From: Dehalococcoidia bacterium
Lineage (GTDB): Bacteria > Chloroflexota > Dehalococcoidia > GIF9 > AB-539-J10
Length of the DNA stretch: 33,225 bases
NCBI GenBank assembly: GCA_030603485.1
Contig: JAUVXS010000002.1
Location: forward strand, 1-33,225
Direction of reading: 5' to 3'
Shown: positions 2,529 to 24,617 of the stretch, one piece after another
Numbering within the stretch: the first letter of the stretch is position 1
Layout of the letters: each line of letters opens with the position of its first letter
The notes under the pieces: generated by a model
What the model was told of the DNA's origin: nothing
Database searches by the model: none
What the model saw: only the letters and a program-made list of their open reading frames with translations
Program-made: the position numbers and the translations under genes

Positions 2529-2599
2529 TCCCAATAGGTCACTTTACGTTCAAATTAGGACTTTTGTGTCAAATGCCCAAAACTTGTTTTGTACGTAGA
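2529..2599 (+). repeat. Relic repeat L, copy 1 (element-end-like segment)
   Basis: About 70 bp, roughly 70-75% identical by eye to 10521-10590. That second copy lies 14 nt downstream of the end of the tRNA-Trp 5'-half copy, and weaker similarity seems to run back through those 14 nt to the junction. Confidence 0.5.
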
Positions 2600-2731
2600 A
2601 TATCAACTAGTAACAACCAGTTTCACTAAGTCTGTTAGCAAATTATTAGCAAAATTCTAGCTTCGGTTTAGTAGACCCCTTGTCAGATCCAACGTGGGAA
2701 AATATAATGTCCTTCATTAGGAGGTGAGTTT

Positions 2732-2977
2732 ATGGCAAATAAGCTGTCTGAAGAAGAATGCTATGAAGTAGAAAAGAAAAGGGTCAACTTATATCGGAAT
2801 ATTCTTGAACCGATAATAATGGAAATGATGATTGTGTTCATTTTTACAGAGGCGTTAGATTTATCATTTGGTGGTTTCGCACCTATCTTTTGGTTAGTGT
2901 TGGCTTTTGGTTGGGTCCTCATCATAATCTGTATGGAAGTAACGATGATACGGGCCTTCTTAGAGAGCAAGAAATAG
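2732..2977 (+). CDS. Small hypothetical membrane protein (2 predicted TM helices)
   Basis: 81-aa ORF with a strong AGGAGGTG SD 7 nt upstream. Hydrophobic stretches IIMEMMIVFIFTEAL and FAPIFWLVLAFGWVLIIICM. 18 nt upstream of the next gene. Confidence 0.5.
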   Translation: MANKLSEEECYEVEKKRVNLYRNILEPIIMEMMIVFIFTEALDLSFGGFAPIFWLVLAFGWVLIIICMEVTMIRAFLESKK

Positions 2978-2995
2978 AATTGGAGAGTACAGGAA

Positions 2996-3616
2996 ATGAA
3001 AACGAGCCAAGAAAAACATAAAGTTGAGGGAGAGAAACAACTAGAAGACCAGACAAAATCAAAAGCATCACGTTGGTTATGGTTGAGGAGATCACCAGCA
3101 CTTCTGGACGCATTAAGAAGGCTGTTTGAACCCCCTAAAAGACTCATTGAACCCTACGTTAAAGACAGTCAGGTGGTTGCTGACCTTGGTTGTGGCTCAG
3201 GTTACTGTACGCTCGCTTTGGCTGAACTCGTTGGTTCTGAAGGAAAGGTCTACGCAGTTGATTTGGATAGAAAGTGTATCCGAGCATTAGAGAAAAGGGC
3301 AAATAAAAGTGGTTACCGCAACATTGAAGTACACGCTGTATCTGCAGCAGATGTTAGCTTCATAAAAGACAGGTCCGTTGATTTCGTTCTTGCCAATGGC
3401 CTGTTATGTTCCATGGCTGACAACCGACAGTCAGCTGTGAACGAAATAAAGCGTATCCTCAAGTCAACAGGCCAGGCGTACCTTAGCCTGGGTTTTGGCC
3501 TTCCTCTTGGTTTTGTGGGCCAAGCGGAGTGGGAGAAAACACTTGAAGAATTCAGGGTTGAACAAGGGGGTAGTTACAAAGAAAAGTGGGCTGTGGTTTC
3601 CCTAAGAAAAGAGTAG
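2996..3616 (+). CDS. Class I SAM-dependent methyltransferase
   Basis: Motif I VADLGCGSGYCT and a post-I acidic residue (VYAVDLD). Methyltransf_11/25-like length. Confidence 0.85.
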   Translation: MKTSQEKHKVEGEKQLEDQTKSKASRWLWLRRSPALLDALRRLFEPPKRLIEPYVKDSQVVADLGCGSGYCTLALAELVGSEGKVYAVDLDRKCIRALEKRANKSGYRNIEVHAVSAADVSFIKDRSVDFVLANGLLCSMADNRQSAVNEIKRILKSTGQAYLSLGFGLPLGFVGQAEWEKTLEEFRVEQGGSYKEKWAVVSLRKE

Positions 3617-3703
3617 CTTGAAGTATTCTGAGGTATATCTACCCACAACCCGATATATTATCCTTATCTAACCGCATTAGGGAAAGGAGGAGAAATATAT
3701 GGG

Positions 3704-3763
3704 CTGAAGCTAATGGAGCAACAATAAGGACAGTTAGGTAGACTCCATAGCAATAGAAACAAC
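3704..3763 (+). repeat. Relic repeat X, copy 1
   Basis: 60 bp, ctgaagctaatggagcaacaataaggacagttaggtagactccatagcaatagaaacaac. It differs at about 5 positions from 10658-10717. Confidence 0.7.
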
Positions 3764-3772
3764 TATGGGGAT

Positions 3773-3821
3773 AACAACGATAATATCTAACTAGACGTGG
3801 TATGGAAATCTGCTTAGTTTG
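3773..3821 (+). repeat. Relic repeat Y, copy 1
   Basis: aacaacgataatatctaactagacgtggtatggaaatctgcttagtttg is about 85% identical to 11818-11866. Confidence 0.65.
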
Positions 3822-3839
3822 CTCATTTGGACTTAGCTA

Positions 3840-4592
3840 CTAATCGGCATGAGAAGGCTTACGAAACAGATACATCGCCCAACCAAGCGTATCACGACCC
3901 CATTGTAAATAATTCTTTCGTCCATGAGCAACGCGAGCTAGTATCTCCGGTACATCAGGGTCATCCGGGTTATCCCTGGCATACCTTTCGGCCGCATACC
4001 ACTGAAGCGTCTCGTACCGGTCCCAATCGTCCTGATTGCTGGCCATTGTGTACAGCGGGAACAAGCCTTCGTCTTCGCCGACAAGTACGTTCTCGTAGTG
4101 CGTCCCAAACATATCACGCGTGTGGTTCTCGGCAGCCAGATACGCGTCACCCGGCTCCTTAAGCCAGAAGGGTTCTCCGACGAGAATGAGGCCACCCGGT
4201 TTCGTCATAGCCTTCAAAGCACTTAAAGTCCCCCGATGTCCCTGATATACCCATGAAGCACCGATACACATGGCAAGGTCGAAGAGTTGGTCGGGGCTAT
4301 GGTCTGCTCCGTCCATGTTGAGGATTTCGATTTGAGCAACAGGCACCCGTTCCTGCAACTTCTGTTCTGTGGCCGCCACGCAGTATGGGGAGATGTCGAC
4401 CCCGACTCCGGATACCTCGTATCGTTCCGCCAACCTTGCCAGCATCTCCCCCTTGCCGCAGGCAATGTCGAGTACGGCAGACCCTGGATTCAGTTTCAGG
4501 AGCTCAATTAGCGAGTCGAGCTTCGCTGTACTCATCGGATTGCAGACTACATGGTAGCCATGCGTCACGCTGAAAAATTTCCATATATCCAT
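3840..4592 (-). CDS. Class I SAM-dependent methyltransferase
   Basis: Motif I VLDIACGKGEM, VGVDIS, and a later PGGLILVGEPFW segment. AAAGGAG SD upstream of ATG 4592. Confidence 0.85.
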   Translation of the reverse strand: MDIWKFFSVTHGYHVVCNPMSTAKLDSLIELLKLNPGSAVLDIACGKGEMLARLAERYEVSGVGVDISPYCVAATEQKLQERVPVAQIEILNMDGADHSPDQLFDLAMCIGASWVYQGHRGTLSALKAMTKPGGLILVGEPFWLKEPGDAYLAAENHTRDMFGTHYENVLVGEDEGLFPLYTMASNQDDWDRYETLQWYAAERYARDNPDDPDVPEILARVAHGRKNYLQWGRDTLGWAMYLFRKPSHAD

Positions 4593-4647
4593 CTTAATTT
4601 CTCCTTTAATTCAGGTAGGGTGATAGTAATGCAAATATGCCTCCCGC

Positions 4648-4737
4648 CAGCCAAAGAAATACAGGCTAATCCTAATTATACAACTTACTAGGTCGGTTAA
4701 GTTTGAGGATAGTCTGAGGCTTTATCGTAATATAACT
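4648..4737 (+). repeat. Relic repeat Z, copy 1 (decayed 3' end of an island-type integrase gene)
   Basis: Translates to QLTRSVKFEDSLRLYRNITSH*, compared with the intact integrase C-terminus RYTRSVQFEDSLKLYTSIME* at 13321. About 75% identical to 5480-5569. Confidence 0.65.
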
Positions 4738-5012
4738 AGTCATTAGAGCCCGCCATTGCCCAATCCAAAGGGCATACCCCCTTCTTGATATTCAGATGTC
4801 TGTCTCTGACCTATTTGGATTTTGGCAGTGATGCTTGGCTTAGGCTGATTTGGGGAAGCTCTGTAAGAGGAAAGATAGCGAAGGAACGGGAAGATGAAAG
4901 AGCAAGAACTGAGCTGCTATAAATGAGGTTAGCCGACGTTTCTATAGTAAGTATTTTGATGAACTTGAAAAAGAATAACAGGAAGTTGTTTTAGCATTGT
5001 TAAATATATAAA

Positions 5013-5363
5013 TTATCTACAGCTACTGCTAGGAATTTCTTCTTCTGGCGATTCAAGTTTCGCTAATCTATCATTAAGACCTGTCATATAGCCTTCAGAG
5101 TAAGCTGCTCCATCCTTTTCATCCCTGGAAAAGTCGGATGATGGGGGGAGGTCAAAGTAGTAAGCATCCATATAGCCAAACCATTCAGGTGTGTTCGGAG
5201 AATATGGTGTAGGTAGAGAAATAACATAGTCCAAAAAAACGTCTGGGTCAGATAGATTTCGTTCATTACTAGGGGGAGATTTTAGATAATAGAGACCAGT
5301 AACTAATATCGCAATGCCAGCTACCAACATTGCTAGCAGAATATAGGATTTTCTTCCTCTCAT
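5013..5363 (-). CDS. Hypothetical membrane-anchored protein
   Basis: 116-aa ORF with an N-terminal TM helix (ILLAMLVAGIAILVTGLYY) and a weak AGAGAGG SD. No recognisable domain. Confidence 0.45.
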   Translation of the reverse strand: MRGRKSYILLAMLVAGIAILVTGLYYLKSPPSNERNLSDPDVFLDYVISLPTPYSPNTPEWFGYMDAYYFDLPPSSDFSRDEKDGAAYSEGYMTGLNDRLAKLESPEEEIPSSSCR

Positions 5364-5479
5364 TTTGCCTCTCTTGACATTCTATTAGATTTCAAAACCT
5401 TTTGTCATACCTCCAACCAACATCTGATAGAAGACCTCCAAGGGAAGCCCTCTCCAAATCCACTGGCTGGGCTGGCTAT

Positions 5480-5569
5480 CAGCCAGAAAGATAAATCCTA
5501 ATCCTATTATACCACTTGTTAGTTCAGTGAAGTTTGAGGATAGCTTGAGGCTATATCGGAGGATTGAAC
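5480..5569 (+). repeat. Relic repeat Z, copy 2 (decayed integrase 3' end)
   Basis: Translates to SSVKFEDSLRLYRRIEQ. Collinear with 4648-4737 and with the end of the intact integrase gene. Confidence 0.65.
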
Positions 5570-5765
5570 AAAACCGAGGATTGTTCAATCAGACCGATCC
5601 GCACTTAAATAAAGCCAGTTTTCGTGCAACAATTGTGGCTCTTCTCTAGAATAGGTGGACTCTGTCTGACTAGTGAATACGGCCCACTGCACAAATGGGG
5701 AAGTATCCTCCGCTTCTTCAGGTGCTGTCTCCTAGTGTCCGTTTGTTTACCGAGTCTGCCAGCTT

Positions 5766-6281
5766 TCACTTCGCTGGCAGAATACTGTCTCCCCAGCGGC
5801 CGGAAAAGGCGATATCCCCCAGTCTCTTCCTTAGCTTGGAAGGGGTCTCGGCAGGATATCCTAATGAGAGAGCACAGATCAACCTTTGTTCCCGAGGGAT
5901 GTTCAGTATTACCTTCACTTCCTCGTCATTGAGCCCGGGGTTTATCCAGCAGGTCCCTAGGTCAAGGGCATGGGCAGCCAACATCATATTTTGAACCGCC
6001 AGGGACCCATCTTGTATTGGGCAACTGGATAGTCCGGGGTCCACTGAGACTACTATTCCTACTGGCGCCTCATCTAAGAACCACCCGTAGAGAAAGCAGC
6101 GAGTAATCCGCCGCTTGACTTCTGGGTCAGTGAAAACAACAAAGCTCCACGGCTGCGAGTTACTGGCGGACGGCGCCCATCGCCCGGCCTCCAGAATCTT
6201 GACTAACAGGTCATGCGAGACCGGATCCGGCTGATATCTCCGGATGCTCCGTCTCGTTTCGATTGCCTCTAGTACCTCCAT
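5766..6281 (-). CDS. Nitroreductase family protein (FMN-dependent)
   Basis: LEAIETRRSIRRYQPDPV and APSASNSQPW motifs. GGAGG SD upstream of the ATG. Confidence 0.9.
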   Translation of the reverse strand: MEVLEAIETRRSIRRYQPDPVSHDLLVKILEAGRWAPSASNSQPWSFVVFTDPEVKRRITRCFLYGWFLDEAPVGIVVSVDPGLSSCPIQDGSLAVQNMMLAAHALDLGTCWINPGLNDEEVKVILNIPREQRLICALSLGYPAETPSKLRKRLGDIAFSGRWGDSILPAK

Positions 6282-6371
6282 TTAGTTACCTCCATTCCGC
6301 ACGAGTGGTTGTGAGCTCAGTGGTAAAGAAGGTGGCTTTCACTATCAGGCTCATCGCCAGCTTGTCCGGCT

Positions 6372-6659
6372 CTACTTCACTCGGTGAAGTTCAAGTGTGA
6401 CTAGATTTGACCGGTCCATGCACTCTACGGTCACCACATCTGGGTTGCCCCATTCATTGGGGAAGCCACCACCAAACTGGAGCATCACTATGTAGGGGTA
6501 GATGTCATGATAGAAGAAGCCGCAAAGCCCAGCGGTATCGTGACAGCTTATGCTAAAAGTATCACCTGCCTCATGCCCCCACGAGCAGTTGCCCTTAACT
6601 GATTTCACAGTTGCGACTACCTTATGACCGGGAAATGTGGCTCGTTTCGGTTTCGCCAT
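6372..6659 (-). CDS. TIGR04076-like small Cys/His-rich protein
   Basis: Pattern KGNCSWGHEAGDTF ... GLCGFFYHDIYPYIVMLQFGGGFP ... VECMD matches my recollection of the TIGR04076 family. Start set to ATG 6659 (GGAGG SD 8 nt upstream) rather than the GTG at 6680. Confidence 0.6.
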   Translation of the reverse strand: MAKPKRATFPGHKVVATVKSVKGNCSWGHEAGDTFSISCHDTAGLCGFFYHDIYPYIVMLQFGGGFPNEWGNPDVVTVECMDRSNLVTLELHRVK

Positions 6660-7003
6660 AACTTCAACCTCCTTTTCCACTTTTTGGTTTCTGGCTGGAA
6701 TCTACTCTCGAGACTGCCCTAGGCTATTCTAACATGCCTGCCTTTCCGTCGCCAATGAGCCACCTACACCTGTCGAATGTGGCTTGAGACTAACCAGACA
6801 AAGGAAGCGGAGGCAAAGATTAAGTATAACCAAACGCTATAATGACATGTATACTAAAATCCTGATGAAGAAAGTCGGCAAATTGAATATGCTTAAAATC
6901 GGGGCCAAGATATTACTGAAATCAAAAGTTTAATAATTAACATAATTGGCTGAGTTACATCGACGTACCCCGTAAGAAAGAGACTATTGGCTGGTGCACT
7001 CAT

Positions 7004-7681
7004 TCAGCTTAGACGTGTTACCATGTTCTTCACCTTTTGGGAAGCGTTGCTTACAACAGGAGCGCCATGACCTGTAAGAAGTGTATCGAAATCCAAGGCT
7101 GAAATAGTTATTAATGAAGCTCTGGCCTTCGCTTCGTCCAGAGAAAACATTCGAGAAGGAGGCTTAGGATTACCACTCGAATCGCTCCTAAGTGCGTCAC
7201 CTACAAAGATAACCTTATTAGGCTTGTAGACACAGATACTGCCATGAGTGTGCCCTGGTACATGGATAATCCTGAAGCCTTTTATCTCGGAATCGGCACT
7301 GAGAATAATATCAGGTTCTGCTGGATGATAGTGCATTAAACTCATTGCCAGCTTGAAAATGAAGCCCAAGGGTCCTCTAATGGTCTTAAAGCTTTGTTTA
7401 CCACGGAGAATGGGGGCATCATCAGCATGTATCACTAGCCTCGCTCCGGTCGTTCTTTTCAATTCTGCCGCGCTGCCAATGTGGTCTATATCGGCGTGTG
7501 TCAATATGATAAATTTTATATCGGATAGGTTCTTCCCTAGCCCTTCGATATAAGCGACTATCCTTTTTGCGTTGCCAGGCATACCCGTGTCGATGGCCAA
7601 CGTCTCGTCCTCGCCAATGACTAAATAGGCATTAGCTCCCCTGACACCACCTACTCGGTGGATTCCAGGCATTATTTCCAT
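7004..7681 (-). CDS. MBL-fold metallo-hydrolase
   Basis: ILTHADIDHIG (HxHxDH) motif and a later HVPGHTHG. The start lies 1 nt after the stop of the upstream DUF169-like gene, suggesting translational coupling. Confidence 0.9.
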   Translation of the reverse strand: MEIMPGIHRVGGVRGANAYLVIGEDETLAIDTGMPGNAKRIVAYIEGLGKNLSDIKFIILTHADIDHIGSAAELKRTTGARLVIHADDAPILRGKQSFKTIRGPLGFIFKLAMSLMHYHPAEPDIILSADSEIKGFRIIHVPGHTHGSICVYKPNKVIFVGDALRSDSSGNPKPPSRMFSLDEAKARASLITISALDFDTLLTGHGAPVVSNASQKVKNMVTRLS

Positions 7682-7682
7682 T

Positions 7683-8477
7683 TTAACCTCTAGCCGATTC
7701 TGCTCGATTCCTCGTTGGTTTCGTCGGTGAGACCACTATCCTTTTCTGCAACTTCTTCCATGTATCAGTAATGAGGAAGCTCTCCTCCATGTTTCCAATC
7801 ATTGTGACAAATCTTTTCATGGGTACAGAGAAACTGAGCGTATCCTTCGGCACATAAGGTCGTGCTGAAGGGTCAAACATCCCGATGACGGCCCTGGGAT
7901 GTGGTGAATCCTTCTCCAAGTACGGGTAAGACACGATGGAAGAACAGCCTGAACCCATGGGCGTGATTACTCCTTCCAGTTGCGACTCGTCGAAATTCAC
8001 CAGAGTGAATAGACCCGCAAGGACATCGGGTTGAGCGAAGAAAATCACTACTTCTGGGTCATCTTCTTGGGAGAGGTTATCCCATCTCTTGAACACAGCG
8101 AAAGCCCTAGGGGCTCTAAGGTTTGGCCATTTCTTCATAATCTCCCTCACCAGTTCCGGGGACTTCTTATATCGTTCGCCTTCCATCCTGCCCGGAATGC
8201 CACAGGAGAGGAAGTACTCAAAATCAGGCCTCAATCTTTCAGCAAAGCCCAGGTACCTTCTGCCCCCGAAACATCCGATTGAATCAGCGTTAAAGCTAAA
8301 ACAGCGGCCGTTTCTTACCTCCATCAGTGCACCAATTACACATCTGTCTACTGAACCGGGCTTGACCAGTTCTGCCTGTTCCCCAGTGTCGCTGTAATAA
8401 AAGGTGATCGGGAGCTCAGCATTGTTGAAATACTTCTTACTCAATTCAATGAATTTGTCTTTGATTTTCATATCCAT
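7683..8477 (-). CDS. DUF169-like protein (COG2043-type)
   Basis: 264 aa. The layout PITFYY ... C..GAL ... GCFGGRRYLGF ... PEVVIFFAQPDVLAGL ... GSGCSS resembles DUF169. Assigned from memory of the family pattern only. Confidence 0.55.
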   Translation of the reverse strand: MDMKIKDKFIELSKKYFNNAELPITFYYSDTGEQAELVKPGSVDRCVIGALMEVRNGRCFSFNADSIGCFGGRRYLGFAERLRPDFEYFLSCGIPGRMEGERYKKSPELVREIMKKWPNLRAPRAFAVFKRWDNLSQEDDPEVVIFFAQPDVLAGLFTLVNFDESQLEGVITPMGSGCSSIVSYPYLEKDSPHPRAVIGMFDPSARPYVPKDTLSFSVPMKRFVTMIGNMEESFLITDTWKKLQKRIVVSPTKPTRNRAESARG

Positions 8478-8741
8478 AGGTCTTTGCCTCCATTAATCAG
8501 ACTTCAACCTTCTAATTGTAACAAAACTTGCTGAATATGAAATAAAATATCAAGCTCACGAACCTATGATGTAACTTATGCAGGCCGGGGCCCGTCCTGG
8601 GTTTGGTATGAAGACTCATTTTATGCTTGTTTGGTACTACACCAGTTATCGTAATTGCCTTTATCAGTCCCTTTCTCTCACTCCTTCGCCAATGATTCCA
8701 AAGCCATTGCCAATTCGGAAATAATTACCGCAAGGTCACAA

Positions 8742-9815
8742 TCAAATGGTCTTCTTCTCAACAACGGACTTCAGCCTGTGATAGGTTTCACCCCCATTAG
8801 AGAAGGGACAGACCTTCACGCAGACAGAGCAACCCATTGTCCTTTGGAAATACTCGAAACAGCTTTCTCGATCAATGCAAGTTCGAATTGCTCCAACACC
8901 AGGGACATTATCGATTCTGACCACCTTCTCGCTGTTAATTGCCTGCACTGGACACAACTGCTCGCAGAGCTGACACAGCTCACAGTACTCCTCAATCCAG
9001 TCATGGTCACGATTATCCGTAAACTCAAAGCACTTGTGTTCAATAAATACGGGAGCGAGCCGAACACGAGGCCCATACTCTGGAGTAATCAGAAGCCCGA
9101 AGCGACCCTGCCAACCCATTCCAGCTTTACCTGCAAGGGAAGGGGTATTGGTAATCCCTCCCATAGGATGATTACTCTGACACCGCAATCCTTGCTTACG
9201 CAACCATCGAGCAATCTCGTTCACTACAAGCCCGAGACTTCCGTAAACACGCATGACCTCCTGACCAGCCCGGAACTCAGGAGCATAGGCAATCTTATCC
9301 TTCTTCATCTCCTGGCTCGCAACAAGGGCGTAACGAAAAAGTGTGTACTTGCCCCGGAATATCATCTGCCGGGGCAGTTCCGTGAATCCAATTCTAACAT
9401 CACCCCACTTCTTCTTGGCAAATCTATTCAACTCATCCCAGAGACCGGGTTTAGGTTCAAATGGAGCAGGCTCCAATTCCTCGAAATATGGTTCGATGTC
9501 CTCCCAGCTCTGGCTCGATCCCTTTTGTATATTGCTCATGATCTTGATCATGCTAGCCATGGCCTGGGTTGGCATGCCCATATGCCGAGCGGAGTTTGCC
9601 TTCTCCGACTGTTGACCACTTGATGATCTCAAGTCCTTACGGGCTGCATACAGATACTCAAATCCTTCCTGAACAGAATCAGGATGAGCAGGATAGATCA
9701 AATCAGGATGTTCCTTCCCTCGCTCAAGATAGTGCGTTTCTTTTTCAGAAAAGGCAACGGAAGTGCTTTGCGACCCTCGTGTCTCAAATTGCGTCTTAGA
9801 GGTAGATACTTTCAT
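8742..9815 (-). CDS. RdhA/QueG-superfamily corrinoid/Fe-S oxidoreductase (reductive-dehalogenase-like, cytoplasmic)
   Basis: 357 aa. KAGMGWQGRFGLLITPEYGPRVRL core motif. Two C-terminal cluster motifs: CELCQLCEQLCP and C(x16)CSVCVKVCP. No RRxFLK twin-arginine signal. AGGAG SD. Confidence 0.75.
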   Translation of the reverse strand: MKVSTSKTQFETRGSQSTSVAFSEKETHYLERGKEHPDLIYPAHPDSVQEGFEYLYAARKDLRSSSGQQSEKANSARHMGMPTQAMASMIKIMSNIQKGSSQSWEDIEPYFEELEPAPFEPKPGLWDELNRFAKKKWGDVRIGFTELPRQMIFRGKYTLFRYALVASQEMKKDKIAYAPEFRAGQEVMRVYGSLGLVVNEIARWLRKQGLRCQSNHPMGGITNTPSLAGKAGMGWQGRFGLLITPEYGPRVRLAPVFIEHKCFEFTDNRDHDWIEEYCELCQLCEQLCPVQAINSEKVVRIDNVPGVGAIRTCIDRESCFEYFQRTMGCSVCVKVCPFSNGGETYHRLKSVVEKKTI

Positions 9816-10400
9816 ATCACATCTCCTGCTGTTACGAGAAACATCAGTGAACCTCGCCTGTAGTGCTTACATATTGCCTTTTTTCTCGATTAGCTGTCAT
9901 ACGCTATTACAGAGAACCACTCACGAAAGTTCGATTTGCGTCGTCCAGTTTTATCGCTTTCCCATGGCCCAAGTTGCGTAAGCCAAGACTGCAAGTCCCA
10001 ATACGTTGAGGCAGGCAAACGCAATAGTAACACCTCTGCCTCAGCCGGCAACAAACTCGTTGACTAGTAGACCAATAGTTCCAATGATAAGCAAGACGAA
10101 TGCGCTCAATTTTATAGCATTATTCTTGTCCATTGTTGCTAATAGGTATATTAGCACATTTTTTGATTCATCTTCTGGGGTGGGAGAGGTTGGAGGATGC
10201 GAGTGCCTTCTCTGATATCGCGGGGCCCTTTCAGTCGCAAAAATAGGGCAAATAAAAAGGTAAGAAGTGGCGTTGAATTATTTCCGAATTTCTTCTACAA
10301 TTCTTTTGAATTGGCTCCTCGGTGGTGAAAAAACTGCGGGTCGTTAGGGCCACAATTAGGTGGTCTTAGCTTCAAAATGAGGAGAAGCAACGAGCCTGTA

Positions 10401-10442: not shown

Positions 10443-10466
10443 TTTTTGATATAATTATGCTGATTT

Positions 10467-10506
10467 AGGGGTGTAGCTCAGTTTGGCTAGAGCAGCGGTC
10501 TCCAAA
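10467..10506 (+). repeat. Copy of the tRNA-Trp 5' half (acceptor through anticodon loop); putative att remnant
   Basis: 39 of 40 nt identical to 12345-12384. Identity stops exactly after the anticodon loop (CTCCAAA). Confidence 0.8.
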
Positions 10507-10520
10507 TTCTAAGCTAGATG

Positions 10521-10590
10521 TCCCAAAAGGTCATTTTACGTATAAGATAGAACCTTTGTGTCAATCCCGAAACCCGGTTTTGTTCGTGGA
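10521..10590 (+). repeat. Relic repeat L, copy 2
   Basis: See 2529-2599. Confidence 0.5.
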
Positions 10591-10657
10591 GTCCCATTAT
10601 GTCCCGACGCGTCCCAAACAATTTAACGCCAAAATAGCGCCAGTTTTCGGGTATGGC

Positions 10658-10717
10658 CTGAAGCTACCGGAGCAACAATAAGGACAGTTAGGTAGATCCC
10701 ATAGCAATAAAAACAAC
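10658..10717 (+). repeat. Relic repeat X, copy 2
   Basis: See 3704-3763. Confidence 0.7.
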
Positions 10718-11006
10718 AAGGACTGATAATGGCAAAAGTTGCTCTCTCAGCAACAACCCTAAAATGATGAAGGGTTTCCAAAATACCCAAAATTGAACGG
10801 AAAATCAAAATTAACGGCCTATACCAGATAAAGGGGGGTGAGGTGAATAACTGGACAGTACCATTACTAATGGGTGATTGACAGCAAGGAAGACAACGCT
10901 ATACTAGTCTTAGGGGGAAATTCCAAATACCGACATCTGGATTCCAAATAAATATCCCACGACCAAAATCCACAAAACTAGACAGTTTTGAATTTGAAAA
11001 AAGAGC

Positions 11007-11627
11007 ATGGAAATCAAACCATTCTTTTCAGCGTTGATTATTCTGGCGATGCTGGCTGTATTAGGAGTAGTTTTTTATAGGACTCTGGAACAAGCACCTC
11101 CGGAACAAGCACTCCCAGAACAAGCACTTCCAGAACAAGCACTGGGAACAGGAACCTTAAAGCTCTATCTTTGTGATGCCCCTCTAGATGCTGAAAATGT
11201 TACAGGTGCTTATATCACTATCAATGAAATTCAATATCATCTAGTTGGTCAATGGATAACGTGTGAAGAATTTGAAGGTCCCAAAACATATAACTTATTG
11301 GAATTAACCGAGGGAAATTCCGCTTTATTAGGTGAGTTGACATTACCTGCTGGGTATTATGCTCAAATTCGCTTTATGCTGGATATTGCAGAAAAGGCCT
11401 CATCCCGGGCCAATCCAGGCTGTTATATTGAATTTGCTGATAACTCCACCCAACCTCTCTTCGCCCCGAGTGGTGGAAAGACAGGGTATAAAGCGATAGG
11501 CTACTTCGAAGTGCCTGTTAATGGAACTGTTGAGGTTACCGCAGACTTTGATGTTCGTAAAGCTGTGGTTGTAGCTGGTTCTTCATACATCTTAAAGCCC
11601 ACAATCAAGCTGATAGTCAACTACTAA
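11007..11627 (+). CDS. DUF4382-like membrane-anchored protein with an N-proximal EQA(L/P)P repeat
   Basis: N-terminal TM helix. LKLYLCDAPLDAENVTGAYITINEIQYH and YNLLEL..GNSALLGELTLPAGYYAQIRFML match the DUF4382 pattern as I recall it. Confidence 0.6.
   Translation: MEIKPFFSALIILAMLAVLGVVFYRTLEQAPPEQALPEQALPEQALGTGTLKLYLCDAPLDAENVTGAYITINEIQYHLVGQWITCEEFEGPKTYNLLELTEGNSALLGELTLPAGYYAQIRFMLDIAEKASSRANPGCYIEFADNSTQPLFAPSGGKTGYKAIGYFEVPVNGTVEVTADFDVRKAVVVAGSSYILKPTIKLIVNY
11088..11144 (+). repeat. 15-bp tandem repeat, about 3.8 copies (gaacaagcacyyccr)
   Basis: Read directly from the sequence. Encodes EQAPP-EQALP-EQALP-EQALG inside the 11007-11627 CDS. Confidence 0.9.
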
Positions 11628-11817
11628 GCTGGAAGCATTCGCGGCTCACGCAACTGTAACCTAGAATTTCAATTTTGCCCTATTTGGCTCAAGGTATTTT
11701 AGCGTGCTTTTAAGTGCTTTTATTCCCTTTATTTGAAGCTAAAGAATCTTTTTCTTGTATTAAAAAGAGGAAGATAAAAGTTCTTAAACCTCTTATTCAT
11801 TCGTTAAGAATATGTGT

Positions 11818-11866
11818 AACAACGACAATATCTAACTAGACGTGATATAGGAAGTTGCTTGTTTTG
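11818..11866 (+). repeat. Relic repeat Y, copy 2
   Basis: See 3773-3821. Confidence 0.65.
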
Positions 11867-11870
11867 TGAG

Positions 11871-11907
11871 GTTTGAGGATAGCTTGAGGCTTTATCAGAA
11901 GATTGAG
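11871..11907 (+). repeat. Relic repeat Z, copy 3 (short integrase 3'-end relic)
   Basis: gtttgaggatagcttgaggctttatcagaagattgag translates to FEDSLRLYQKIE. Confidence 0.55.
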
Positions 11908-11994
11908 TCTCCTTCTCCTAACCTAGTAATGTAACAAGTAATCCAGCAAGGTTGCCTTGGAAAATAGAGTTGCCCCTATTTTAGGAGAGTCAAT

Positions 11995-12027
11995 GCCGAG
12001 GGGCGGGGACAATCCCCGCCCCTCGGC
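11995..12027. repeat. Perfect 15-bp-arm palindrome (REP-like hairpin)
   Basis: gccgaggggcgggga-caa-tccccgcccctcggc. The core GGGCGGGGACAAnCCCCGnCC recurs at 19215-19235. No T-tract follows. Confidence 0.8.
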
Positions 12028-12036
12028 TCACTAGGA

Positions 12037-12333
12037 ATGCTAGACATGGTGAGATCTTATATTTACTCTACAAAAGGCGCGAAAGACAACGTCTCGGACG
12101 GCACGGCGAGGAACTCTTGCCCAAGTGGGGCCAAGCCGAAGGTTATCTCTGAAGCACTAGGACACGCTAGCGTACCCTTTACAATGGATGTCTACTCTCA
12201 TATAATGGAGGGGATGCAATCGGACGCCATGGCGTTGCTTGATGAGGTTATGCCTGTAGGCAAAAATGGGGGGTCTCAAAAAAATAACGCCAATTTGACG
12301 CCACAACTAGACATAAAGTTGAGCAAGAACTAG
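12037..12333 (+). pseudogene. Tyrosine recombinase C-terminal fragment (frameshifted relic)
   Basis: KVISEALGHASVPFTMDVYSHI is the LGH...Y catalytic-Tyr box. An RH-box-like GRHGEELL is visible only in another frame upstream. No N-terminal or core domains. Confidence 0.7.
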
Positions 12334-12344
12334 AATTTAGCTTC

Positions 12345-12422
12345 AGGGGTGTGGCTCAGTTTGGCTAGAGCAGCGGTCTCCAAAACCGCAGGTCGCGGGT
12401 TCGAGTCCTGCCACCCCTGCCA
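12345..12422 (+). tRNA. tRNA-Trp (anticodon CCA), 3' CCA encoded
   Basis: Cloverleaf folded by hand: acceptor AGGGGTG/CACCCCT, D-arm GCTC/GAGC, anticodon stem GCGGT/ACCGC with loop CTCCAAA, T-arm GCGGG-TTCGAGT-CCTGC, discriminator G plus CCA. Confidence 0.9.
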
Positions 12423-12423
12423 G

Positions 12424-12506
12424 GCCGAGGTGGCGGAATGGTAGACGCGGCGGACTTAAAATCCGCTTCCTGCAAGGGAGTGTGGGTTCGAGTCCCTCCC
12501 TCGGCA
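12424..12506 (+). tRNA. tRNA-Leu (anticodon TAA), type II with a long variable arm
   Basis: Acceptor GCCGAGG/CCTCGGC, anticodon stem GCGGA/TCCGC with loop CTTAAAA, a long variable arm, T-loop TTCGAGT (one U-U mismatch in the T-stem), discriminator A. Starts 1 nt after tRNA-Trp. Confidence 0.88.
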
Positions 12507-13321
12507 GTAGCCAAAGTGGTAAGCAACTGGTAGGCAATTTCCTCAAGTCCAGACGGGAAGGTCTAAGTCCTCAGTCAATAGAGTTCTACGAAGGTTATCT
12601 GAGGCTTGCCAATACCGTCATAGGATTCCACATCACAGGTCAGGATATATCCCAATTCCTCAGCAATCTTGGCTGTAGCAATGGTGGCAAACATGCTTAC
12701 TACAGAGCCCTTAGAGCTTTCTACAACTGGTTATATTCCCCGAAAAGTGGCCATGGTCTAAATCCTCAGGATAATCCTATGCTGTTGGTGGAAAGTCCAA
12801 AGGTAGAAAGGAAGATACTACCGAGCCTGACAACGGAGCAGTTGGACTATCTCATAGACCAGACTGAATGTATCCGGGATAAGGCTATCATATCCTTGTT
12901 TGCTGACAGTGGGCTACGCTTATCGGAACTAGCCAATATTGACCAGGCTAACATTGACTGGCAACATCGGTTAATCAAGGTCGTTTGTAAAGGGAATAAG
13001 GAAGGACTTGCTCCCTTCGGTCAAAGGACTGAGAAGCTACTCAAGGAATGGCTATCACAACATCGTGCTGGTGGTAAGCTATGGGACATAAGAGAACGGG
13101 GAATAGCCTGGATGCTTTGGAGACTGGAAGCTAAGACAGGTCTTCCTTGTAATGCTCACACTTTCCGAAGGACATTTGCCAGCATCCTATCCAAGAGAGG
13201 GGTAGATTCCCTCCACATTATGAGGCTTGGCAGGTGGCAATCCCTGGCGATGGTAGACAGATACACAAGGTCAGTCCAGTTTGAGGATAGCCTTAAGCTC
13301 TATACCTCCATAATGGAGTAG
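12482..13321 (+). CDS. Tyrosine-type site-specific integrase
   Basis: SAM-like N-domain (SPQSIEFYEGYL...YYRALRAFYNWL). Catalytic boxes DSGLRLSEL (R), HTFRRTFAS (HxxR), LGRWQSLAMVDRYT (W...Y). The only canonical start before the N-domain is GTG 12482, inside the tRNA-Leu T-arm. Confidence 0.85.
   Translation: MGSSPSLGSSQSGKQLVGNFLKSRREGLSPQSIEFYEGYLRLANTVIGFHITGQDISQFLSNLGCSNGGKHAYYRALRAFYNWLYSPKSGHGLNPQDNPMLLVESPKVERKILPSLTTEQLDYLIDQTECIRDKAIISLFADSGLRLSELANIDQANIDWQHRLIKVVCKGNKEGLAPFGQRTEKLLKEWLSQHRAGGKLWDIRERGIAWMLWRLEAKTGLPCNAHTFRRTFASILSKRGVDSLHIMRLGRWQSLAMVDRYTRSVQFEDSLKLYTSIME
12518..12538 (+). promoter_or_regulatory. Paired GGTA(A/G)GCA motif next to attL (candidate arm-type recombinase site)
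   Basis: ggtaagcaactggtaggcaat matches 17557-17577 (ggtaagcagatggtaagcaat) at 18 of 21 positions. A third pair is at 13765-13794. Confidence 0.35.
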
Positions 13322-13322
13322 C

Positions 13323-13637
13323 TCAGGACATACCGAGACAAATTCTGAGTTTCAAATTCGAACCTGTTTCGCCCAAGACAGAGATAGACTCCCGCGCTAC
13401 ATCACATTCACCTTCAGGGTAAAGGATTTCGCCTCTCCTCAGGGCAAACTCCGCGCGACGGTCGGCTGGTCCAGGCGAGATTCCGAAGCTTGAGCGAAAA
13501 ACCTTCTCTCCTCGCAATGACAGGGGGGCGTCTTCCGTAATGACCAGTGGGAGTGTCATTGCCAGCAAAGCGCTGTAATCCATCGGCACGGTCGCTAGTT
13601 GCTCTTCGTCGCTGGTAGAATCATCTGTATTGTTCAT
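13323..13637 (-). CDS. Hypothetical protein (doubtful)
   Basis: 104-aa ORF convergent with the integrase. No SD and no recognisable motif. Confidence 0.25.
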   Translation of the reverse strand: MNNTDDSTSDEEQLATVPMDYSALLAMTLPLVITEDAPLSLRGEKVFRSSFGISPGPADRRAEFALRRGEILYPEGECDVARESISVLGETGSNLKLRICLGMS

Positions 13638-14017
13638 AGTACTAATGGACTATTACCTTTCTCCTAGTACTAGTCGCAAAAAAGGGGAAAATCCCTCGCT
13701 CCTCCAGTACTCCTGATTGACTTTCTTCCGAGGGGAGTAGCAATCCGTTGTGGATAGCTAAATTGGTAAGCACTTACCTTTGTGCTGGTAAGCAAAGGGT
13801 GGAGTCTCCCTACTTATCTCTTCTGAAAGGATAGGTATCTTCATCTCTGAGGACTACACCTACGAGCTAGCTATATGTGATACCCCCTACCCTTGCCCTC
13901 TCTCCTTCTCACCTACGCTCACCGAGCCAATATCTGCTCGTAGAGAAAATCCAGTCAGGCTTAGAATATTCGGGATTACATAATCAACTCAGGCTACGAG
14001 TGTGGTAAAATAGGAAT

Positions 14018-14557
14018 ATGGAAGAAACCTATTATATTTGGCAGATTATTCTCGTTGGGATTCTTGTTGCAGTCACTATATACTATGCTATTCAAACACA
14101 CCGTCAGGCTAACCTCCTCAAGAGACAGATGGATGAAACCCGCTATATCCACAATATAGCGACTCTGAAGCAATCTATAGAACAGATATACGAATGGGCA
14201 CAATACGGAGTTAATGAATACTGTATTCCTGGGCTTGGGCGTTTTGATAGAGGCAACTATCCTGTAAGTACAAAAGCTACAACACACTTGGTATTATCAG
14301 GTGCTAGGGCACTGGGCAATGCTTCGTATATCGGAGGCGATTTGTGGGATAATGTAAAGCAGGCATATGATTCTATGGAGACAGTAGTTGCATCTCTGGG
14401 GGTGGATACTACACTTGAACTTCTATCAGACTCAGAATATGAACGCCATATTGAGGATTTCCAGAAATCTTTACAAGCTCTTTTAGACAAATTCTCAGAT
14501 GTGATGGTGGCATGCCGTAATTTAATGGTTGGGTTAGACATGGAAACATACGGATAG
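14018..14557 (+). CDS. Hypothetical protein, N-terminal TM anchor plus helical domain
   Basis: 179-aa ORF. TM helix IWQIILVGILVAVTIYYAI. AT-rich island cargo. Confidence 0.5.
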   Translation: MEETYYIWQIILVGILVAVTIYYAIQTHRQANLLKRQMDETRYIHNIATLKQSIEQIYEWAQYGVNEYCIPGLGRFDRGNYPVSTKATTHLVLSGARALGNASYIGGDLWDNVKQAYDSMETVVASLGVDTTLELLSDSEYERHIEDFQKSLQALLDKFSDVMVACRNLMVGLDMETYG

Positions 14558-14752
14558 TTTTCTGATGCATTAGAATCCCTTTGTTTACAACCTTCCTCTT
14601 GCCCTCTCCAAATCCACCTAGCTTAGCTAGTCATCGGCTAATCATGACTTCATCCAAGATTAGTGGCTCTGAAGGACTACCAGAATCAAGCCAACTAAGT
14701 CTGTTGTGCCGTCTTACCTGTTCTTCTGTAATTTCCTTTAAATGTCCGTAGT

Positions 14753-15409
14753 CTAGCCCCGATAAGTACATATCATGAATAATTTATCTTTATCTTTGTA
14801 GAACATGAGCCATGTGATTGAGTTAGTAGGGTCATCCTTCATTGTGTTTCTCCAATATGTAACTACACCATTGCCTAAGTCCACCCTTTTTGCACCCTTT
14901 ATGGCTTCGTCAAGCGGAGGAGAAAGGAAACGCTCAGGTTTACCATTTGCGTAGTCCACGAGTATTTGTACATTTTCTGGCAATATAGCACCTGTGTCCA
15001 AGTAGTAAAGACCTTTCGCAATTTTACGCAAGACACGATTGATGACCTCTCCATCCATTTCTAATACCAGCGTACGACCAAGCAATGCACCAGACTCTGA
15101 TATTACTCTTGCTTTTCTTATGTATGACCTTATGGTTGGCTTCAACAATGGTCTACGACCTTTCAGGTCTGGGCGAATCCTCTCGTTCCAAATGCGGAAG
15201 CCAGGCTCATTTTCATAAGCCATTCCCGAAGCTAAAAAAACTCTGAATTTTTCCTCATCACTGGACAAAGCATTATTACATTCAGTACACGCAGGCAATG
15301 TTCTAAGATTGGCTGGCAAAGGTTTATTAAACAAGCTACTAGGGAAAAGATGGTCTCTAGTATCAGCTAGTTTAGAACCACAGAGATAGCACTTTTTGCT
15401 AATAGACAA
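14753..15409 (-). CDS. HNH-nuclease-like protein with an unknown C-terminal domain
   Basis: N-terminal CYLCG...TRDHLFP...LPACTECNN gives two CxxC pairs plus the His and Asn of a beta-beta-alpha-Me finger. TTG start with a GAAGGTGA SD. About 150 aa of unassigned C-terminus. Confidence 0.6.
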   Translation of the reverse strand: MSISKKCYLCGSKLADTRDHLFPSSLFNKPLPANLRTLPACTECNNALSSDEEKFRVFLASGMAYENEPGFRIWNERIRPDLKGRRPLLKPTIRSYIRKARVISESGALLGRTLVLEMDGEVINRVLRKIAKGLYYLDTGAILPENVQILVDYANGKPERFLSPPLDEAIKGAKRVDLGNGVVTYWRNTMKDDPTNSITWLMFYKDKDKLFMICTYRG

Positions 15410-15451
15410 GTTGTCACCTTCTCTTCAACAGCCTGTAAATCCATCTATCTA

Positions 15452-15649
15452 CTACCCATCAGGCAAAGTATACATGGTAATCGTAATGGTAGCACTTGCC
15501 GAGGAATTGCCTGTCTTGCTTACGCTACCAGTCACCTCATTATCAGGGATGCTGGTATCAGCAATAGCAATGCGAGTATCATTTAAGCCAAGTAGGACTA
15601 ACCCTACCAGAAGGATTGCAAGGGTGACTACAGTGACCAGGCTCTTCAC
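15452..15649 (-). CDS. Small hypothetical secreted or membrane peptide (doubtful)
   Basis: 65-aa ORF with a GTG start and signal-like LVTVVTLAILLVGLVLLGL. Lies 42 nt upstream of the HNH-like gene. Weak SD. Confidence 0.25.
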   Translation of the reverse strand: MKSLVTVVTLAILLVGLVLLGLNDTRIAIADTSIPDNEVTGSVSKTGNSSASATITITMYTLPDG

Positions 15650-15810
15650 TTCAACCCACTCTTAAATCAATTATAGGCTTGAATAGCTACAGAAGCAATA
15701 CCCTTGAAGGGTAAATGTGACCAAGTGCAAGGGAGCACCGCACTACGCTAAACCAGAACATGAGGAACGCTAGTGTTCAGCCTACGATGTTATATAATAA
15801 GGGAAGTAAA

Positions 15811-16614
15811 ATGACTTCACAAAGACCCAAGATTATCCATCACCAGAACAATTTAAGTGGGTATGTCGGTAACTGGCGTCTCTTAATGAATCAAATTTTG
15901 AAGGTGCAACCTCCTATTGATATTCCACGAGAACTAGTTTCTCTGGGTGACAATACCCATGATTTATCTGTAATGCTTTCATATCTGGACGCTAACCTGA
16001 CAATACTTGAGGAAACACCAGATGTAGCTGGTCAGCAAATTAACTATTTAGCTTATGCTGAGGCAAGGAGTTTCTTGAAGGCGTGTTATATGTTAGTCCG
16101 CATATTGTTTGATGATGTATCAGGGGTAATTAAGTATTTTTACGACAAGAAAGAACCAAATTCGGGAGTAACTAAAAGTTTTGATAAACTTCTTAGTAGA
16201 GCTAAGAATGGGAAATTGCCTGAAGACCTTTCTACACTACTCAAACAAACCATTGTAAATTTTCCTGAAATGAGAAACAGGAGAGTTGATTTGGAGCATT
16301 ATTATGAATCTCTTCTGATTTCTTTTAGGCACGATGAAGAAGGTAAAACCATTCTTGGACATTTCAGCACGAAGCAACGCCCTGCCAAAGAGTATGAAGA
16401 TATTAGGCAATACTTTGGTTCTGTTCTTTGCGAGTATCAGACTTTAATTGACAGTTTGCTTGACCATTTTGATGCCAAGTTCGTAGATTGGTACAGATTC
16501 AAACCGCACAGAGATTTAAATATTCTCCAGGGATACGCAGGCATTATGTTATGGTGGGCGTGCAAGTATGGTAACTACAGGCACAAAGACTTAGTAGTAA
16601 TTGAGAGTGATTAA
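15811..16614 (+). CDS. Hypothetical soluble protein (ORFan)
   Basis: Start placed at ATG 15811 (AAGGGAAG SD 5 nt upstream); the ORF is open from 15760. No motif recognised. Confidence 0.55.
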   Translation: MTSQRPKIIHHQNNLSGYVGNWRLLMNQILKVQPPIDIPRELVSLGDNTHDLSVMLSYLDANLTILEETPDVAGQQINYLAYAEARSFLKACYMLVRILFDDVSGVIKYFYDKKEPNSGVTKSFDKLLSRAKNGKLPEDLSTLLKQTIVNFPEMRNRRVDLEHYYESLLISFRHDEEGKTILGHFSTKQRPAKEYEDIRQYFGSVLCEYQTLIDSLLDHFDAKFVDWYRFKPHRDLNILQGYAGIMLWWACKYGNYRHKDLVVIESD

Positions 16615-16711
16615 TACTGACACTAGACAACAATTCTGTATGCTCTATACTACTGCGAGGGATAGAATCATAATATATCGAGAGAAACGGAAAGGAGGTT
16701 AAGCAAGGAAG

Positions 16712-17275
16712 ATGTCGAATAGTTTACAACCAGAGCAAATTACGGACGAGCAGCGACGAGTATGGTTAACCGAATACCAAGTTTGTCAACAACATAATGA
16801 CGCTATTGGGTCACAAGCCTGGGTGAGCACAACTATATTTCTAACGATAAATGTGGCTTTGTTGGGTGGTCTCGTCTATACACTCATGACAAACTTAGGA
16901 AGCAGCAGTTCAGAATTACGACTCATAATATTAATCAGCTTCATAGCACTAAGCGTAGGAATACTCTTGATTTTAAAGAAATGGGTGAATTGGTTAAAGA
17001 GAATGAGATTTACGGCATCAATTAATTATGAAAGGATGGGTCAAATAGAGCGATTCCTGGGAATGAGGAAACATACAATGTGCTACGAGCTTGACGAAGA
17101 ATATCGCCAAGTGAAGACATCAGCCGCAAGAAAAGAGTTTAATAAAAGGAATGAACCCTTCAAATACTTCAAGGCAAGTGGATTTGATGGACTAATGTTC
17201 ATAGCTAAAACATTAATGGGACTATGGTCTTTATCAATCTTACTATTGTTGATTGCACTAACTATTTCACCCTAG
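16712..17275 (+). CDS. Hypothetical 3-TM membrane protein
   Basis: Strong GGAAAGGAGG SD. TM helices WVSTTIFLTINVALLGGLVYTL, LRLIILISFIALSVGILLIL and LMGLWSLSILLLLIALTI. Lies 97 nt after the preceding ORF on the same strand. Confidence 0.6.
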   Translation: MSNSLQPEQITDEQRRVWLTEYQVCQQHNDAIGSQAWVSTTIFLTINVALLGGLVYTLMTNLGSSSSELRLIILISFIALSVGILLILKKWVNWLKRMRFTASINYERMGQIERFLGMRKHTMCYELDEEYRQVKTSAARKEFNKRNEPFKYFKASGFDGLMFIAKTLMGLWSLSILLLLIALTISP

Positions 17276-17342
17276 CGAGCTTGGGGGGGAAGGTTAAGGA
17301 AGGGGGGCGTAGCCCCCATCCCAGGAGTTGGGTTACTTCTCC

Positions 17343-17483
17343 CTAAGATACTGCCCCTGTCCAAATTTCTTCAATTACTCCCTCTTTACACTTGGGGCAG
17401 GTTTCTCCGACCATCTCAAGTTCCGTTTTGACATTCTTTGACTTGCACTCGGGACATTCTCTCGTGTCTTTCTTCCGCTTCAA
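17343..17483 (-). CDS. Possible small zinc-ribbon protein (below the ORF-track size cut-off)
   Basis: My own translation: LKRKKDTRECPECKSKNVKTELEMVGETCPKCKEGVIEEIWTGAVS*. Only TTG starts are available (17483, 17495 or 17501), and the SD is weak. Confidence 0.3.
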   Translation of the reverse strand: MKRKKDTRECPECKSKNVKTELEMVGETCPKCKEGVIEEIWTGAVS

Positions 17484-17556
17484 CCTAACATACAAAGTCA
17501 ACCTATCACTACACGGGAAGAGACCACCTAGTGATAGGGTTGCTCAAGCTCTAAAC

Positions 17557-17577
17557 GGTAAGCAGATGGTAAGCAAT
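17557..17577 (+). promoter_or_regulatory. Paired GGTAAGCA motif next to attR (candidate arm-type site)
   Basis: See 12518-12538. Confidence 0.35.
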
Positions 17578-17592
17578 ATTGAAGCTAATAAG

Positions 17593-17649
17593 GGACTTAA
17601 AATCCGCTTCCTGCAAGGGAGTGTGGGTTCGAGTCCCTCCCTCGGCAGT
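17593..17649 (+). repeat. attR: 57-bp copy of the tRNA-Leu 3' part (anticodon stem to 2 nt past the discriminator)
   Basis: Identical base for base to 12452-12508. Confidence 0.92.
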
Positions 17650-21701: not shown

Positions 21702-21813
21702 AATAACCCTTTAGAAAATCTACCTTTCATTACCCTGAACATCATGGAGAGTTTATATTCTCCGCTCTACTCACAACGGCAGAGAAATGTTATTAAGCAA
21801 ACTCCAAAACTTT

Positions 21814-23016: not shown

Positions 23017-23120
23017 TCTTACCTTCCTAGATATTGATTGTCCAGGATGTAACGCCTTTGCCCTTCTTATATCGAAAGCGGCCAGTCAAATTGAGCCCGA
23101 TTATAGCACACAGCCAGCCA

Positions 23121-24017: not shown

Positions 24018-24113
24018 TTTTACCTCCTTGAATTTTGTTTTTTAAAGACACTGGCTCGATTCAGTATTTCCAGGAAACTAACTCTAAATAACTATCAAAA
24101 CCAATACTCTCGC

Positions 24114-24584: not shown

Positions 24585-24617
24585 CTCTCCTCCAAAAAAT
24601 AAAGTAGCCAAAACAGG

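Follow-up and report, generated by a model that had tools for sequence, protein, structure and literature searches.

A candidate soluble corrinoid iron-sulfur reductase from a Dehalococcoidia genome and its unnamed clade beside the reductive dehalogenases

Does a 357-amino-acid (aa) corrinoid iron-sulfur (Fe-S) protein encoded in a Dehalococcoidia genome belong with the reductive dehalogenases (RdhA), with the epoxyqueuosine reductases (QueG) or with neither, and do the four genes that follow it on the same strand form a pathway with it? The window, by which we mean the whole 33,225-nucleotide (nt) stretch that was analyzed, is contig C23 of a 1.36-Mb metagenome-assembled genome that is 58% complete. 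An earlier note on this DNA, made from the letters alone, had placed five same-strand open reading frames (ORFs) here. Their coordinates were confirmed, as were, by profile matches, their family assignments, and so was the 1-nt spacing (position 7682) between the DUF169 gene and the gene for a metallo-beta-lactamase-fold (MBL) protein. From the reductase to the nitroreductase, the genes are:

8742-9815, minus strand: RdhA/QueG-like corrinoid Fe-S reductase, 357 aa; matches to TIGR02486 and TIGR00276 below their cut-offs, plus Fer4 domains
7683-8477, minus strand: DUF169 protein, 264 aa; PF02596, 109 bits
7004-7681, minus strand: MBL protein, 225 aa; Lactamase_B, 112 bits
6372-6680, minus strand: TIGR04076-family protein; TIGR04076 at 55 bits, exceeding the cut-off of 33
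5766-6281, minus strand: nitroreductase-family flavoprotein, 171 aa; Nitroreductase, 121 bits

For the TIGR04076 gene, the ATG at 6659 is the probable start in place of the GTG at 6680; it gives a 95-aa product like those of the relatives (L146, L148 and L149). Our answer to the question, which we hold with a probability of about 0.6, is that the product of 8742-9815 is a soluble, cytoplasmic corrinoid/2x[4Fe-4S] small-molecule reductase from an unnamed sister clade of RdhA, that its gene was acquired horizontally, and that the genes downstream of it are independent modules.

Membership of the curated families was assessed from profile scores. The reductase scored 70.8 bits against TIGR02486 (RDH), below the cut-off of 160.35, and 47.3 bits against TIGR00276 (QueG), for which the cut-off is 200 and of which only model positions 135-251 were covered; on its sequence it fails the score tests for both RdhA and QueG. 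PF13486 gave no match at E<=0.01, and Fer4 domains alone were detected by Pfam. When the PDB was searched with the family profile, two PceA structures scored 94.5 and 77.6 bits, B. subtilis QueG 45.6 and NpRdhA 37, and a search with the single sequence likewise put both PceA structures at the top. No RR of a twin-arginine translocation (Tat) signal is present within the first 50 residues, and no membrane segment was found in the protein, the top 19-residue Kyte-Doolittle mean being 0.87; an RRxFL-like motif or a hydrophobic segment was present in 0 of 35 family members. The chain stops 21 residues past the last Cys motif, leaving no HEAT-like tail, whereas the QueG of L016 combines Fer4_16 with HEAT_2. 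A separate QueG-like gene lies elsewhere in the same genome (C111:2189-3202) and matches the whole TIGR00276 model (positions 1-336) at 166 bits, a score that likewise misses the cut-off of 200. Another two short superfamily proteins were seen, namely a 242-aa long-branch protein of the genome itself with equally weak QueG and RDH scores (C59:5314-5781, L002) and a 329-aa protein of paralogue type in one genome of the same genus (G013:C86, L013). The earlier note had described the protein as Tat-less, as lacking the C-terminal extension of QueG, and as a member of the RdhA/QueG superfamily; all of this holds, and by scores, fold and tree together the protein is neither a canonical respiratory RdhA nor the QueG of its genome. 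QueG identity is rejected on the scores, the domain content, the tree and the gene on C111: QueG branches as the outgroup, and the 357-aa protein is not the only QueG-like product of its genome.

To compare folds, a model of the reductase was built with AlphaFold2 (AF2) on 35 homologues (pLDDT 84, pTM 0.83). In Foldseek it matched PceA with E=2e-11 (TMq 0.56) and NpRdhA with E=6e-9 (TMq up to 0.59), and more weakly QueG (E=3e-5, TMq 0.40) and MMACHC (E=6e-3). The predicted fold is closer to PceA and NpRdhA than to QueG, and the modeled chain contains the corrinoid-binding core, so that binding of the cofactor is predicted. The cluster cysteines C278/281/284/288-P (pattern CxxCxxCxxxCP) and C319...C329/332/336-P (CxxCxxxCP with a further Cys upstream) are the same in each of the 59 clade members and in every RdhA and QueG reference. 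These eight Cys bear out the two C-terminal Fe-S motifs of the earlier note, and the fold matches agree with its corrinoid core. In both HMMER and MAFFT alignments, Y191 aligns with PceA Y246 and NpRdhA Y426, and R252 aligns with PceA R305 and NpRdhA K488; both residues are invariant in the family. R206 and R252 are common to the family and RdhA, whereas QueG has L, V or Y in the R252 column and E in the R206 column. The alignments suggest that the cofactor set and the proton-donor pair are RdhA-like. The family also has invariant residues specific to it (N215-H216-P217-x-G219-G220, K230 and W273), and an Asn conserved in RdhAs (the PceA N272 column) is replaced in it by Gly.

To place the family, 91 sequences were put into a maximum-likelihood tree, which came from a quick search and carries only SH-aLRT support. 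They comprised family members, paralogues, 25 Dehalococcoidia RdhAs from genomes, PDB references in the form of core fragments, QueGs and the homologues from the genome itself. The family forms one clade of 59 sequences (SH-aLRT 100, stem length 1.37), sister to a clade (support 97) that holds every RdhA, including PceA, NpRdhA and the 25 Dehalococcoidia RdhAs, with QueG as the outgroup. Thus, the 357-aa reductase is not nested inside the RdhA clade. Members of its own clade are ~320-360 aa long, and mean column identity within the family is 57%. Asgard archaea (Thor-, Hermod-, Prometh-, Hod- and Heimdallarchaeota) supply most of the close homologues, which are 45-77% identical; others come from Bathyarchaeia, a few Dehalococcoidia and a bacterial group of Clostridia, Tissierellales, Halanaerobiales, Spirochaetes, Brevinematales and Thermotogaceae. 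The window protein falls within a 22-member subclade (support 100) in which Thor/Hermod and Dehalococcoidia sequences are mixed and which is itself nested in Asgard diversity, as expected of transfer between domains. On the best reading of these sequences, the gene came by horizontal transfer out of a pool that is shared with Asgard archaea.

Among the 1.84 billion representatives searched, 108 clusters matched at E<=1e-30 and 697 at E<=1e-10; most of these proteins are 300-360 aa long. The family was found at E<=1e-50 in 67 of 201 Asgard species genomes (33%), which rules out a core housekeeping role in Asgard archaea, and in the genus to which the window belongs, none of the 36 other species genomes has an orthologue and one has a distant, 39%-identical paralogue. 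It is mostly single copy per genome. Public labels of its members read '4Fe-4S binding protein' or 'ferredoxin', and some of the 90% cluster are labeled QueG. The cultured Promethearchaeum syntrophicum MK-D1 carries an intact member that retains the Tyr and the Arg (L076, 7605-8690); a disruption of this copy was considered and rejected, as the TGA falls upstream of the start. MK-D1 also bears a second, weaker RdhA-like hit elsewhere in its genome.

Do the four genes downstream belong with the reductase? Comparison of the region with related loci resolved it into three parts:

8732-10054, minus strand: module 1, the reductase with ~240 nt upstream; 92.5% nt identity to L016, where the gene stands alone, and 97% to L019
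6977-8590, minus strand: module 2, the DUF169-MBL pair; 89-91% nt identity to L104, L105, G025 and G004
5565-6840, minus strand: module 3, the TIGR04076-nitroreductase pair; 90-92% nt identity to L146, L148 and L149, which are other contexts

The copies of module 2 in L104, L105 and the same-genus G025 and G004 have no adjacent reductase, and their flanks are unrelated. The order reductase-DUF169-MBL is kept only in L019/L020, which are 96-97% identical in nucleotides and hence represent one lineage, offering no independent evidence for a conserved cluster. We take the genes downstream of the reductase to be two independent pairs that rearrangement placed beside it, and no dedicated pathway. 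An integron-cassette organization was considered and rejected: no attC-like hairpins were found, shuffled sequences fold as well as the spacers do (z -0.3 to +1.0), and the shared module DNA reaches upstream of the genes and not downstream, where integron cassettes would carry little upstream sequence and an attC hairpin after each ORF. Selenocysteine forms of DUF169, flagged by in-frame TGA codons, were likewise rejected, the TGA stops being the natural gene ends.

The same question was addressed from the side of the homologues, in a survey by phmmer and de novo neighbor clustering of 80 species-level genome loci with flanks of up to 8 kb. A homologue of DUF169 or TIGR04076 occurred within 8 kb in 0 of the 80 loci, and a distant MBL protein in 1. 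In a Pfam census of the 150 nearest neighbors, the recurrent families were MarR (12), TetR (10), aldo-keto reductase (7), MFS (4) and lysine aminomutase (4), with DUF169, MBL and TIGR04076 absent from among them. A conserved five-gene cluster is rejected on these three analyses. The earlier note had read the protein as a cytoplasmic member of the B12/Fe-S superfamily, which stands, and its neighbors as functional partners, which is not supported: the modules shuffle independently, and the co-occurrence survey that the note had proposed for the reductase with DUF169, MBL and TIGR04076 found no conserved unit in the loci or in the census. More generally, same-strand adjacency in the plasticity zones of Dehalococcoidia is poor ground for calling an operon during annotation.

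What does recur beside family genes is of another kind. MarR or TetR genes lie within 600 nt of the family gene in 21 of ~85 loci, co-directional in bacteria and divergent in Lokiarchaeia. A nitroreductase of 170 aa, from the same subfamily as that in the window, adjoins the family gene in three other lineages (L008/L009, L060 and L082), and these were the only nitroreductase hits in a total of ~1 Mb of flanking DNA; this is no more than a weak hint of an association between the small nitroreductase and the reductase. Four homologues (P0202, P0289, P0302 and P0292) are fused at the C-terminus to a Pyr_redox_2 flavoprotein of ~480 aa, for a total of 650-830 aa, and these fusions suggest an electron route into the clusters and a cytoplasmic redox role. 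Other homologues are fused to GNAT (P0264), methyltransferase (P0337) or U32 peptidase (P0327) domains. In a set of Lokiarchaeial genomes (L042-L045, L048, L052 and L058), the gene stands between a lysine 2,3-aminomutase gene and that of a 346-aa protein that is conserved but matches no Pfam family, and a MarR gene is divergent; this arrangement may merely reflect the shared ancestry of those genomes. At one Thorarchaeota locus, the family gene lies 20 nt downstream of a gene for a class-II aminoacyl-tRNA synthetase (aaRS).

How might such a reductase work? In the mechanism that we propose, a soluble low-potential donor, either a ferredoxin or, in the fused homologues, the built-in Pyr_redox_2 NAD(P)H flavoprotein, would deliver electrons, which would pass through the two [4Fe-4S] clusters to cobalt. 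Co(I) would then attack the small-molecule substrate, and Tyr191, positioned by Arg252, would give the proton, as in PceA (Y246/R305) and NpRdhA (Y426/K488). The likeliest substrate would be an organohalide, or else a different substituted aromatic or unsaturated compound; this class is favored because the gene is accessory and patchy in distribution and has, in other organisms, a MarR or TetR regulator gene of the small-molecule-responsive type as its direct neighbor. Several observations weigh against reading the protein in this way. It misses the RdhA thresholds and has no PF13486 match, and no MarR or TetR gene is present in the window. Its family is far more alike across domains (~45-77% identity) than RdhAs are among themselves, which would fit one fixed substrate, and the family's own invariant residues (N215, H216, K230 and W273), together with the lost RdhA Asn, point to a different pocket. 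Furthermore, cobamide binding and activity, and with them the electron path and the type of substrate, are predictions from sequence and model.

Some of these points lead toward a rival explanation, that the family is a third functional kind of class-III B12 enzyme, which acts on one conserved non-halogenated substrate and is not a dehalogenase. Candidates would be a substrate with another leaving group, a metabolite epoxide or hydroxyl, or the corrinoid itself as in CblC/MMACHC, and MMACHC is indeed a weak match to the fold. High conservation across Archaea and Bacteria (45-77% identity, column mean 57%) would suit such an enzyme, as would the invariant residues of its own and the replaced RdhA Asn, its branching apart from all RdhAs on a long stem (1.37), the usual single copy per genome, and Asgard neighbors that are unrelated housekeeping genes, e.g., aaRS and ESCRT. 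However, the Tyr/Arg pair and R206 are those of RdhA, the spread is patchy (33% of Asgard genomes, and nearly absent from the window's genus), adjacency to MarR/TetR is typical of inducible handling of xenobiotics or aromatics, and the neighborhoods yield no candidate substrate. We regard a non-dehalogenase of this kind as the less likely reading, though one with a substantial chance. A wider formulation has a similar, minority probability: that the clade is a third class beside RdhA and QueG with a single conserved non-tRNA, possibly non-halogenated substrate, that it arose in Asgard archaea, and that it reached Bacteria in at least two transfers (Dehalococcoidia; a Firmicutes/Spirochaetes/Thermotogae group), hidden under 'ferredoxin' labels.

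That all five genes (reductase, DUF169, MBL hydrolase, TIGR04076 and nitroreductase) form one cytoplasmic pathway or operon is an unlikely alternative in the light of the module comparison. They share a strand and lie within 4 kb, reductase-DUF169-MBL recurs in L019/L020, and a small nitroreductase of the same subfamily adjoins the gene in L008/L009, L060 and L082. Each pair, however, is found elsewhere at ~90% nt identity without the reductase, and the reductase elsewhere without the pairs; the gaps that follow the reductase and the MBL gene, 264 and 323 nt, separate modules, while that between the TIGR04076 and nitroreductase genes is 90 nt; DUF169 and TIGR04076 are missing within 8 kb in all 80 loci, and DUF169 and MBL from the census of the 150 nearest neighbors; and L019, at 96-97% identity, is no independent case. 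A QueG paralogue acting on tRNA, at epoxyqueuosine or a related modified base, would be consistent with the shared superfamily, with the QueG labels in part of the 90% cluster and with the Thorarchaeota copy 20 nt downstream of the class-II aaRS gene. Against 47 bits where the TIGR00276 cut-off is 200, the absence of a HEAT/tRNA-binding tail, QueG as the outgroup of the tree, a full-length QueG-like gene elsewhere in the genome, different QueG residues at the R206 and R252 positions and the poorer fold match, we judge this very unlikely. Least probable of all is that the protein is just a ferredoxin-like Fe-S protein which no longer binds cobamide: Fer4 domains are all that Pfam shows and source names are of ferredoxin type only, but strong conservation extends over ~250 residues beyond the Fe-S domain, which fold like the RdhA corrinoid core, and the catalytic Tyr/Arg pair is invariant. 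The soluble small-molecule reductase of an RdhA-sister clade is thus the reading that we prefer.

To our knowledge, the B12/Fe-S superfamily has just two known activities, the reduction of epoxyqueuosine and dehalogenation. Work on a sister clade this well conserved might bring to light a third chemistry, or else a natural organohalide as a conserved substrate. The clade comprises at least 108 clusters at 50% identity (E<=1e-30) and reaches the cultured Promethearchaeum syntrophicum and isolate-level Clostridia genomes; it goes under the wrong label of ferredoxin. Its members are attractive targets for expression, being small, soluble and sometimes self-sufficient via a fused flavoprotein.

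The surroundings of the reductase hold remnants of other genes and elements:

9954-10133, minus strand: small ORF of 60 codons with two transmembrane (TM) helices; in-frame TGA where the intact paralogue on C85 has Trp
10464-10506, plus strand: copy of the 5' part of tRNA-Trp, 43 nt, 95% identical to tRNA-Trp 12342-12384; att-type scar
5480-5558, plus strand: relic of a tyrosine-recombinase 3' end; copies at 4648-4727 and 11855-11906, and at 13265-13303 within the intact integrase

The intact paralogue of the small 2-TM ORF (C85:2498-2671) lies beside another membrane ORF and not beside an rdhA-like gene, and in L016-L018 a degenerate second half is all that is present. The ORF at 9954-10133 is probably a pseudogene; as an RdhB anchor it was rejected, since it is broken by TGA and its C85 paralogue has no rdhA-like neighbor. 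It is the sole small membrane ORF nearby, and the earlier statement that no rdhB stands beside the reductase is upheld. In the 1.2-kb upstream gap, Rfam yielded tRNAs and sub-threshold noise alone, with no cobalamin riboswitch or other RNA, and scans for promoters and terminators found fewer sites than in shuffles. The reductase appears to lie in a zone of decayed integrative elements, and 2529-5624 together with 10464-12333 looks like the product of serial integration and decay upstream of tRNA-Trp. Short collinear repeats pair 2529-2599 with 10521-10590, 3698-3763 with 10652-10717 and 3772-3821 with 11817-11866, and a second integrase C-terminal fragment ORF lies at 12037-12333. The small element between the tRNA-Trp fragment and tRNA-Trp contains a gene for a DUF4382 protein (11007-11627), in which three tandem 15-nt repeats (11088-11143) encode PEQAL. 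Further along, a low-GC integrative island of ~5 kb (12424-17649) sits at tRNA-Leu: its integrase (12482-13321) is intact and overlaps the tRNA-Leu 3' end, the island is bounded on the far side by a 27-nt repeat of the same end (17623-17649), and among its cargo are genes for an HNH protein (14753-15409) and for a membrane protein of 8xMP-like type (16712-17275). The remainder of the window includes a beta-oxidation-type set at 20565-28938 (two acyl-CoA dehydrogenases, a short-chain dehydrogenase/reductase, two MaoC-like hydratases, a thiolase, a ChsH2-like OB-fold protein and a 3-hydroxyacyl-CoA dehydrogenase) and SecDF at 30301-32605.

How does the clade compare with known systems? Tat-less, RdhB-less rdhA-like genes are known in marine Dehalococcoidia, Desulfobacterota and Asgard archaea (PMC6737245, PMC12219181, PMC12090745), so that the general idea is not new; in the literature, we found no paper that characterizes this clade or DUF169. 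Putative Asgard reductive dehalogenases were described by Manoharan et al., 2019 (PMC6737245), as Tat-less rdhA-like genes of Loki- and Thorarchaeota from marine sediments. Going by the descriptions, those proteins are set apart by PF13486 and, in Thorarchaeota, by an extra N-terminal 4Fe-4S domain, neither of which the family has; the Asgard genomes that we searched contain both a family member and a second, weaker RdhA-like hit. QueG (5D08, 5D6S; TIGR00276) shares with the window protein the superfamily, a cytoplasmic location, a similar size, two [4Fe-4S] clusters and a cobalamin core. However, the HEAT-like tRNA-binding domain at the C-terminus of QueG is missing from the window protein, which also differs in the R206 and R252 columns and whose QueG scores in sequence and fold are much weaker. 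The respiratory RdhAs, represented by PceA of Sulfurospirillum multivorans (4UQU) and PceA of the RDH complex (8Q4H), are the best matches in both sequence and fold, with the core motif AGxGxxGRxGxxITPEFGPRxR, the Tyr246/Arg305 pair and both Fe-S motifs in common. Unlike them, the window protein lacks Tat, RdhB, and the insertion and N-terminal units, is ~100-150 aa shorter and is not nested among RdhAs.

Cytosolic or catabolic RdhAs (NpRdhA, BhbA and the 'simplified cytosolic type' of marine Chloroflexota/Desulfobacterota, PMC12219181) differ from the family in that they form part of the RdhA clade, whereas the family stands outside it, scores below the TIGR02486 cut-off, has no PF13486, is shorter (~320-360 aa), has signature residues of its own and is without the RdhA Asn. 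NpRdhA also has a vestigial second cobalamin-like domain that the family is without, and its fused reductase is of ferredoxin-reductase type, while that of the family is of Pyr_redox_2 type. In common with these enzymes, the window protein is soluble, without Tat or RdhB, and combines a corrinoid core with two [4Fe-4S] motifs, with Y191/R252 aligned to Y426/K488. NpRdhA is self-sufficient, to which the fused NAD(P)H flavoprotein reductase of some family homologues is a likeness, and MarR-type regulators have been reported near cytosolic rdhA-like genes, as they are found near the genes of this family.

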